Part shown: piece after piece, positions 57,886 to 60,569 of the stretch
Layout of the letters: every line of letters begins with the position of its first letter
Position numbering within the stretch: the first letter of the stretch is position 1
DNA from: Eledone cirrhosa
Lineage: Eukaryota
DNA: 64,000 nt
Assembly: GCA_964016885.1 (NCBI GenBank)
Contig: OZ024745.1
Coordinates: 66,278,001 to 66,342,000 of the forward strand
Reading direction: 5' to 3'
The notes under the pieces: model-generated
Told to the model about the DNA's origin: nothing
Seen by the model: the letters and a program-made list of their open reading frames with translations, nothing else
Database searches by the model: none
Program-made: the position numbers and the translations under genes

Positions 57886-58185
57886 ACACATATATATATA
57901 CATATATATAGATATATATATACATATATATACATATATATATATACATATATATATATATATATATACATATATATATATACATATGTATATACATATG
58001 TATATATATATATATACACATATATATATATATATATATATATATATATATATATATACACATATATATATATATATATATATATATATATATATATATA
58101 TATATATATATATATAAAAGACGTAAAATAAGAAAATATTTTTTAAAAAATTTTTAAAAAATTTTTTACTTACTTACTTAAATTT

Positions 58186-58267
58186 ACTCCAACTAATTAG
58201 TTTCTGCAATGGGATAAAGACAGTTACATAATCCAACTGTCGAGAATTCATTGCGTCATCAGGGAGT
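58186..58267 (-). ncRNA. Hammerhead ribozyme, inverted copy
   Basis: Reverse complement of 58852-58933. Confidence 0.82.
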
Positions 58268-58851
58268 CTATTCTCAGCTGAGCCTCCAGGCAATGCGCGG
58301 ACACTGGCGGCTCATATAAAAATAATAATTCGGTAGAAAGAACAGCTAGGCGAGGACTGGATTCTATGTACTGAAATTCTCACTGCTTCCAGTCAAATGG
58401 CCGATTCTAAAGAATCAATCACGTGACATAGAGGCTAGTTAGAAGGAATGGGTTGGTAAGATGACTGACGCCTACTAACACCCCAAAAAAAATTTTGAAG
58501 TGGTTTTGGCAGGTTTGCTCGACAAATCAGTGATTTGGAGATAAATATAGATAATTTAATATATCAACTAACATAGGCGCACAGATGTACGTCCATGCCA
58601 GCAAATACACAGGTTATGTCATAGTACCTTTTTTGGGGTGTTAGTAGGCGTCAGTCATCTTACCAACCCATTCCTTCTAACTAGCCTCTATGTCACGTGA
58701 TTGATTCTTTAGAATCGGCCATTTGACTGGAAGCAGTGAGAATTTCAGTACATAGAATCCAGTCCTCGCCTAGCTGTTCTTTCTACCGAATTATTATTTT
58801 TATATGAGCCGCCAGTGTCCGCGCATTGCCTGGAGGCTCAGCTGAGAATAG

Positions 58852-58933
58852 ACTCCCTGATGACGCAATGAATTCTCGACAGTTGGATTATGTAACTGTC
58901 TTTATCCCATTGCAGAAACTAATTAGTTGGAGT
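58852..58933 (+). ncRNA. Type-I hammerhead ribozyme
   Basis: actcc / CTGATGA / c-gcaatg..gacagtt..aactgtc..cattgc-a / GAAA / ctaattag palindrome / TT / ggagt. Confidence 0.85.
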
Positions 58934-59410
58934 AAATTTAAGTAAGTAAGTAAAAAAATTTTTAAAAATTTTTTTAAAAATATTTTCTTATTTTACGTCT
59001 TTTATATTATTGTTCTGCACCCTCCTGCATTGAACCACCTAGGTACTATGACATAACCTGTGTATTTGCTGGCATGGACGTACATCTGTGCGCCTATGTT
59101 AGTTGATATATTAAATTATCTATATTTATCTCCAAATCACTGATTTGTCGAGCAAACCTGCCAAAACCACTTCAAAATTTTTTTTTGGTTTTTGGGGTGT
59201 TAGTAGGCGTCAGTCATCTTACCAACCCATTCCTTCTAACTAGCCTCTATGTCACGTGATTGATTCTTTAGAATCGGCCATTTGACTGGAAGCAGTGAGA
59301 ATTTCAGTACATAGAATCCAGTCCTCGCCTAGCTGTTCTTTCTACCGAATTATTATTTTTATATGAGCCGCCAGTGTCCGCGCATTGCCTGGAGGCTCAG
59401 CTGAGAATAG

Positions 59411-59492
59411 ACTCCCTGATGACGCAATGAATTCTCGACAGTTGGATTATGTAACTGTCTTTATCCCATTGCAGAAACTAATTAGTTGGAGT
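59411..59492 (+). ncRNA. Type-I hammerhead ribozyme, second tandem copy
   Basis: Same as 58852-58933. Confidence 0.85.
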
Positions 59493-60569
59493 AAATTTAA
59501 GTAAGTAAGTAAAAAATTTTTTAAAAATTTTTTAAAAAATATTTTCTTATTTTACGTCTTTTATATTATTGTTCTGCACCCTCCTGCATTGAACCACCTA
59601 GGTACTATGACATAACCTGTGTATTTGCTGGCATGGACGTACATCTGTGCGCCTATGTTAGTTGATATATTAAATTATCTATATATATATATATATATAT
59701 ATATATATATAAGAGATATGTTACAAAATAAGTCATCTGGGACATTTCTATGGCACAAGATTACAACATAACTTGGAAAGATTGTAAATTCAAAATGAAT
59801 CCTTTCAAATAAATATTATTCACTATTTTCTAAATAATGAATAAATAGCTTTAATTTGATGAAAAGTATTATTAGGATAATATTCAAAAAGGTTTTTTGT
59901 GACTATATTCTGTTCCATTGAGGCTGATATTAAATATTAAATACTGGAAATTTTCTGACAAATAAAATAAATTAACATGATAGAGAATGAAAATATAAAC
60001 ATGAAATTTCCAGTGTCTAACAAATTGAACACAACCAGAGTTACATCAAAGTAGCACGCATACTACAGACACCCAATATAACTCACTCAATCAAGAACCT
60101 CATTTAATATTAGCAAGAACTCATATGATCATAGGAAGTATAACTGTGTTTCAATGAAGGTTCTCAAATTTTTGTGGACCCAAGTTACCAAACATAGATT
60201 TCATCATCATCCTGCAGACTTGGCCAAAATCAGTAGACTCAATGATAGATCTCCACATGGGTCTGCCACTCATGGCAGTAGCTTGTTCCTGAATGTAAAC
60301 ACCCACATCCTTGGCTATGACATCTGGATATGCAAGCTTGCTGTGAGACCCTTGTCGTGAGGCAGATGCAGGTTTTCAAAGCCCAAAATAGTATGCAGCT
60401 TCATTTGAGGCCTAATGACAATGGCCAGCAAACCCCACCCTCCTTCTACATCAGTTATATGTGGCAGACCTTTATATATCCCTCGGAGAGTCTTGTGGTC
60501 CCTCCAGGTTATATTTCGAAAATGTCTGAGAAGTGATGTATTGGCTCCATCAAGACATCTGTGTTGCTT

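Follow-up and report, generated by a model that had tools for sequence, protein, structure and literature searches.

How does a repeat without coding capacity come to lie in a genome both in tandem and inverted, with a hammerhead ribozyme motif in every copy? The question is raised by a short array in a 64,000-nucleotide stretch of the Eledone cirrhosa assembly (the window; contig OZ024745.1, positions 66,278,001 to 66,342,000), which an earlier note, made from the letters alone, had described as a young retrozyme-like element of three near-identical units. The array lies between a left (TA)n target tract (57890-58116) and a right one (59681-59711), target site duplications being unreadable inside (TA)n, and consists of two arms of opposite orientation. 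The minus-strand arm (58117-58629), with about 513 nt shorter than one unit, runs through unit positions ~113-559 and then 1-74, and ends at a fixed site that we call A (...TTACGTCTTT; last base 58117, with 4-5 nt ambiguous with TATA). The plus-strand arm (58630-59680), about 1.9 units long, ends at a second fixed site, B (...TTAAATTATCT; last base 59680). The arms meet head to head at 58629 with a 1-nt overlap, and since their 5' ends fall at unrelated unit positions (~116 versus ~255) the window array is not a fold-back. From site A (59561) to site B (59680) the plus strand carries a 119-nt 'tail' (59562-59680), which is terminal on the plus arm only. A 3' fragment that we take to be LINE-like (57021-57890) adjoins the left (TA)n tract.

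The earlier note was right that the array carries no ORF (its longest stop-free frame has 50 aa), and a within-locus variation of 0.19%, with arms 98-99% identical to each other, bears out the youth ascribed to it. Three identical hammerhead motifs are present as described, but only 58929-59487 (plus strand; 559 nt, 37% GC) is a whole unit from cut to cut. Similarly, the predicted cut sites after 58928 and 59487 are indeed 559 nt apart, but this length, given in the note as that of the element, is private to the window unit, which lacks 2 nt that are missing from each of the three window copies but from 0 of the 254 other units counted, and which alone (58929-59487) has an extra T/G stretch. 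The 559-nt monomer is predicted to be a structured RNA (z -5.26; 0 of 100 shuffles fold as well).

The cores of the three motifs lie at 58857 and 59416 on the plus strand and at 58262 on the minus strand. Copy 1 spans 58191-58262 (minus strand, from the core to the cleavage triplet; predicted cut between 58191 and 58190), and copies 2 and 3 span 58852-58933 and 59411-59492 (plus strand; predicted cuts after 58928 and 59487, respectively). The type I core CUGANGA...GAAA...NUH and stems I-III are all present, the stems being 94-100% paired. Copy 2 comprises stem I (ACUCC/GGAGU), the core CUGAUGA at 58857-58863, a stem II with a conserved C.A mismatch at its base followed by 6 bp with a distal hairpin, GAAA, the palindromic stem III ACUAAUUAGU and a GUU triplet. 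An Rfam scan found no hammerhead at the gathering threshold, perhaps owing to the long stem II, and at E<=10 a single weak match to something unrelated; the assignment is based on the core motif and on covariation rather than on Rfam. In an alignment of 16 distinct sequences 93.5% of the cells pair, while slid-alignment controls pair at 38-47% only. Both-sided changes occur in 7 of 26 hammerhead pairs and the covariation score was reached by 0 of 500 shuffles. Relatedness of the sequences can in itself give an advantage over shuffles, but the alignment shows the two-sided changes of stem II directly, and this stem covaries across ~30% divergence. The conserved core and the covariation suggest that the predicted hammerhead may cleave itself. 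Against such a ribozyme count the GUU triplet, which is weaker than GUC, the C.A mismatch in stem II, the lack of an Rfam match and an active fold predicted at -18.0 kcal/mol, 4.7 above the minimum of -22.7. Among retrozymes, the axolotl HHR_Amex2 likewise has a mismatch where stem II begins. The palindrome of stem III can self-pair (predicted -9.0), which would allow dimeric cleavage, as demonstrated for axolotl retrozymes in the available text of Cervera & de la Pena 2020 (PMC7229834). Upstream of stem I, GAGAA (58843-58847) could pair with the loop II sequence UUCUC (58874-58878), a possible pseudoknot tertiary contact in which 94% of the cells are paired, with no two-sided change.

The genome-wide search for copies suggested in the note was productive: exact matches to the hammerhead core number 9,522 in the 3.0-Gb assembly against 0 for the reversed control, so they are not due to chance. 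Exact matches to the tail hairpin (10,571; control 0), exact-pattern site B ends (569) and strict site A ends (228; control 0 for each) were also found. A DNA search with the window unit gave 208 matches (39 of 936 candidates scored), and the 150 of these that were listed are 95-100% identical to it. Sister copies are mostly 553-559 nt long and relatives 478-571 nt, the full units of other subfamilies (478-571 nt) being 71-94% identical to the window unit. Two samples were examined: a young set of 39 loci, picked by best match and biased to full units, and a C1 set, drawn from the 100 core matches listed first on C1 and limited to their first 60 clusters, which holds 62 insertions (two loci, L095 and L096, look like one duplicated locus). 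In 0 of these 99 arrays (39 young and 60 C1 loci) did an arm continue into an ORF; the unit is not always attached to the ORF of a Penelope-like element (PLE), the case that the note had named against itself. The family is dispersed and multi-copy and coexists with PLEs, fragments of which often share (TA)n neighbourhoods with the arrays. In two further sequencing runs the family is present as short contigs only. Its insertions sit in (TA)n tracts and show a 5'-truncated tandem with an adjacent inverted copy. The window array is thus one insertion of a non-coding, hammerhead-bearing, genome-wide repeat family and, judged by its anatomy, this family is an animal non-LTR retrozyme, that is, a non-autonomous PLE.

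With animal non-LTR retrozymes, as portrayed in the accessible text of Cervera & de la Pena 2020 (PMC7229834) and of Li et al. 2026 (bioRxiv 10.64898/2026.07.22.740005), the family shares non-coding tandem units with one type I hammerhead each, low GC (<45%), structured units, thousands of dispersed copies and the presence of PLEs, and the retrozyme-like identity proposed in the note stands on its tandem type I hammerhead units, its lack of coding capacity and its dispersal. The unit of 478-571 nt is longer than the ~170-400 nt of the former paper but falls inside the 51-972 bp of the latter, and its large size is not the novelty it had been taken for. Li et al. 2026 also report, in the part available, cleavage in only one of nine predicted retrozymes. 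The terms 'inverted', 'microsatellite' and 'target site' have 0 occurrences in the available text of the 2020 paper, and that of the 2026 preprint makes no mention of inverted arms, fixed ends or microsatellite targeting.

It is the ends that proved most informative. The arms stop either at site A, which is position 74 of the unit, or 119 nt further on at site B (position 193); the outer ends of the window array do run into (TA)n, as first observed, but at these fixed family sites and not at incidental TATA stretches. Among the 24 two-arm loci of the young set 23 pair A with B and one pairs B with an interrupted arm, and the single arms comprise 13 A, 1 B, and 1 B with a short interrupted stub. 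In the C1 set 35 of 41 two-arm insertions are A+B (one B end being about 10 nt short); the remainder are four of B with an interrupted arm, one of A with another TATA site, and one with neither site. Taking the two sets together, 65 head-to-head insertions were examined and 7 with an interrupted or other end set aside, and every one of the 58 in which the two arms each stop at a fixed site is A+B, with no A+A and no B+B. Under independent choice of ends the probability of this outcome is at most 0.5^58. The longer arm is A in 16 cases and B in 19, the 5' ends of paired arms are uncorrelated (permutation P 0.86 and 0.57), and the arm-arm junctions mostly overlap by 0-3 nt and are not palindromic. 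A strict pairing of A with B together with uncorrelated 5' ends fits priming from both target strands, and not a fold-back. The 'circular permutation' of the inverted copy, to which the note had drawn attention, is nothing special, since it follows from a fixed 3' start and random 5' truncation.

The same rule was seen elsewhere. Ends linked to Hydra-type ORFs, with a tail of ~90 nt, gave nine A+B and one apparent 'B+B' that on inspection was A+B (10 of 10 pairs), and 16 pairs of a second hammerhead family gave 12 A+B, two A+A that are separate insertions, and two unresolved. Single arms are less regular: that they always end at A, as in 13 of 14 in the young set, failed in the C1 set, where 6 end at A and 14 at B (a 14-nt A stub at L135, seen by eye, was left out of the C1 counts). 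We regard PLE-type priming from both strands as well supported and very probably correct, and the note's proposal of mobilisation by a PLE-type reverse transcriptase (RT) is upheld by the tandem and inverted arms, the one-sided tail and the (TA)n targets. Three arms (L094, L106 and L108) end at other internal TATA-like sites, which suggests that pairing of a (TA)n primer helps to set the start. At terminal B ends (CT)n is expanded in 7 of 45 scored (for example L099, L104, L113, L117 and L144), versus 0 of 128 internal copies; this could be RT stuttering at initiation, or later microsatellite slippage.

What, then, was the template? All 39 young loci carry one haplotype, of seven, across all their units and both arms. 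The window array, L031 and L054 have private variants that are fixed in the two arms alike and over two or more units of template; that of L031 occurs nowhere else in the assembly, while those of the other loci recur only as single units on other haplotypes, so that the apparent sources proved to be recurrent changes. No source array for the private variants was found in the assembly, which is haploid, and from which such arrays could simply be absent. In 6,247 columns from 60 two-arm loci, a count that left out L106, L122 and L041, there were 64 singleton variants and 3 shared within one arm, but 0 common to both arms and not to all units; L041 has one such variant (C124G). A heterogeneous linear template would leave variants in both arms but not in all units, and the single haplotype per locus favours a monomer. 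A monomer read repeatedly, most simply as a circle, is on these patterns probably the template in preference to an uncut concatemer, with ample room for the latter.

From the observed family, fixed ends, A+B pairing, single haplotype per locus, independent 5' ends and conserved fold, we infer a course of transcription, circle formation, nicking of both strands and cDNA starts at A and B. A tandem locus would be transcribed, and its hammerheads, perhaps as dimers through the palindromic stem III, would cut out a monomer of ~555 nt that would then be ligated into a circle. An endonuclease-bearing (EN+) PLE protein, most likely of the Hydra clade, would nick both strands of a (TA)n tract, and the two 3' ends would start cDNA at the sites flanking the 119-nt tail, each start site being followed in the RNA by 4-5 nt able to pair with (TA)n. 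Both cDNAs would be extended across the ribozyme junction to random end points, after a mean run of ~400 nt, and would be joined head to head through 0-3 nt of microhomology; single-arm copies would arise where only one cDNA survived, and the longest arrays would lengthen further through local duplication. The window array is a single recent insertion, likely made by a PLE RT priming from both nicked (TA)n strands on one RNA. Twin priming at A and B on a ribozyme-made circle, taken as a whole, is the account that we consider reasonably probable. A stricter form, in which a protein dimer on one such circle obligatorily uses A for one strand and B for the other, the two RTs chasing each other round it, is tentative and has in our judgement somewhat less than an even chance.

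The same twin priming at A and B could have used a linear transcript that reads through a tandem source array and stays uncut, with the hammerhead as a passenger or acting late. This we think rather unlikely, but several observations fit it: in the available text of Frangieh 2024 (PMC11167929) mutation of the hammerhead leaves insertion normal and none of the RNA reads has its end at the cut, the predicted ribozyme features here are suboptimal, and long arrays carry periodic variants. Likewise, arms of the C1 set cross the cut site in 109 cases and stop at it in 5, a pattern that uncut RNA would explain just as well, and the pile-up of 5' ends at the cut site that we had considered came to a marginal excess (P~0.05-0.08). 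Against an uncut template stand the unit-specific variants in both arms that it predicts and that number 0 in the 60 loci and 1 in L041, the fixation of about five variant events throughout the units of 4-5 loci, and the covariation of stem II; nor could arrays lengthen without a monomer step. A monomer circle by itself cannot have produced the periodic sub-array variants of L041, L046, L049 and L053, which reveal local duplication at a later stage or templates that were multimeric. Long arrays, which carry such variants and exceed the C1 run lengths (maximum 1,487 nt), were accordingly dropped as proof of rolling-circle copying.

Cleaved linear monomers copied through repeated template jumps, with no covalent circle, would also explain homogeneous arrays, and a few arms do begin no more than 8 nt from the cut (five in the C1 set; L066 and L068). 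Jumping is nonetheless improbable: junctions across the cut site are without added or lost bases (257 exact and 6 with a subfamily variant, with a few single substitutions, in a sample partly picked by that motif), and the 39 loci hold no haplotype mosaics. More improbable still is that the inverted arm arose by self-priming or fold-back, as in the model of Arkhipova 2013, or from a solo pLTR that was later duplicated and gene-converted at the DNA level. Conversion could homogenise arms, and local duplication is evident in long arrays, but the arms stop at different fixed sites with independent 5' ends, the junctions are non-palindromic and many singletons are left unconverted, and ends and junctions have largely refuted this explanation. 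An assembly artefact from collapsed or fold-back reads can practically be discounted, as 58 loci, spread over many chromosomes, have this asymmetric architecture with junctions that differ, whereas a fold-back chimera would give symmetric arms.

The twin-priming account has relatives. In L1 a single RNA can be primed by two target strands, and the product has its 5' arm inverted and a junction with microhomology; there the second priming site is variable, whereas in our family the two sites are constant and the longer arm may be that of A or that of B.

Among PLEs, one-sided tails and inverted copies are known qualitatively. As described in the available text of Craig 2021 (PMC8557442) and Arkhipova 2013 (PMC3846280), EN+ PLEs, those of the Hydra clade especially, resemble our family in partial tandems, 5' truncation, an adjoining inverted copy, a tail at one end, hammerheads and (TA)n targets. 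Unlike them, the window family has no ORF, and no homologous autonomous pLTR was found. Its tail has 119 nt (~90 nt at Hydra-linked ends) versus 30-40 in EN+ PLEs, for which descriptions call it optional or place it 'often at one end', in contrast to the strict pairing seen here. For Poseidon PAc, the accessible text of Frangieh 2024 (PMC11167929) reports that the PLE protein cleaves and extends both strands in vitro, that RT starts at two internal sites bounding the tail, without a strand difference in the start site, and that the hammerhead is dispensable in vitro, uncut RNA being the main template. The two tail-bounding start sites, the nicking and extension of both strands, the AT-rich targets and the predicted dimer are all shared with our model; the start sites of Poseidon PAc are not target-homologous, whereas A and B precede 4-5 nt matching (TA)n, and its double-ended products are presented there without a pairing analysis.

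Which PLE might supply the enzyme? The note had pointed to a neighbouring PLE, and the window holds four PLE ORFs: 34829-36970 (minus strand; RWR, DKT, CxCX5C) and 46561-48348 (minus strand; CxCX5C), both with the Hydra motifs of Craig 2021, and 30508-31920 (plus strand) and 49380-51479 (minus strand), which look Neptune-like. Blastx of the units against these four proteins gave no match, however, and a 12-nt word that also occurs in the 3' UTR of the PLE at 34829 was put down to chance. GIY-YIG matches in the genome number at least 150 (10,597 candidates, mostly Neptune-like); no PLE end homologous to the unit was found at 30 of the 150 listed loci, nor in the window or the 20 kb beside it, and BLAST and a profile of 28 natural units returned only another copy of the family. 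As no homologous PLE end was found, the partnership is deduced from shared behaviour, and our best guess is a Hydra-clade enzyme, on account of the (TA)n targeting, the hammerheads and the long ~90-nt tail with the same A+B rule. The window also contains a 1,045-aa endonuclease-RT frame that we take to be LINE-like (41200-44337, minus strand) and integrase-like fragments presumably of an LTR element (24482-25698, minus strand).

The class of element is already known; the A+B pairing rule is absent from the earlier note. In the main texts of the openly readable literature we found no statement of strict A+B pairing, PLE twin priming or a cephalopod retrozyme. How PLEs make tandem, inverted and tailed insertions is an open question in the available texts (Craig 2021, PMC8557442; Frangieh 2024, PMC11167929), as is whether PLE enzymes mobilise retrozymes through circles (Cervera 2020; Li 2026). 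The family offers a short, ORF-free substrate with thousands of copies and haplotype markers, and thanks to its long 119-nt tail the two start sites are readily scored. Tests in vitro or in populations could start directly from two predictions, the A+B rule and the fixation of private variants. If true, the model would be the first genomic record linking retrozyme circles to PLE enzymes, and the A+B rule would extend to Hydra-clade PLEs.

Other insertions came to light in the same samples. At L153 the same small A+B insertion occurs twice, inverted and ~500 bp apart, around a PLE end, and was probably carried along within a larger inverted PLE insertion. A second retrozyme-like family has tandem units of ~310 nt with a compact hammerhead (L031, with 8 units, L110 and L081) and occurs also as inverted arrays with two ends. 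A hammerhead repeat of ~483 nt with a palindromic stem III (L037, L038, L083, L084, L130 and L132) ends at ~80 and ~190 nt and, with a post-cut region ~73% similar over 90 nt, is probably a distant relative of the window family. A further hammerhead repeat family has a spacing of ~420-460 nt (L151, L136 and L056).
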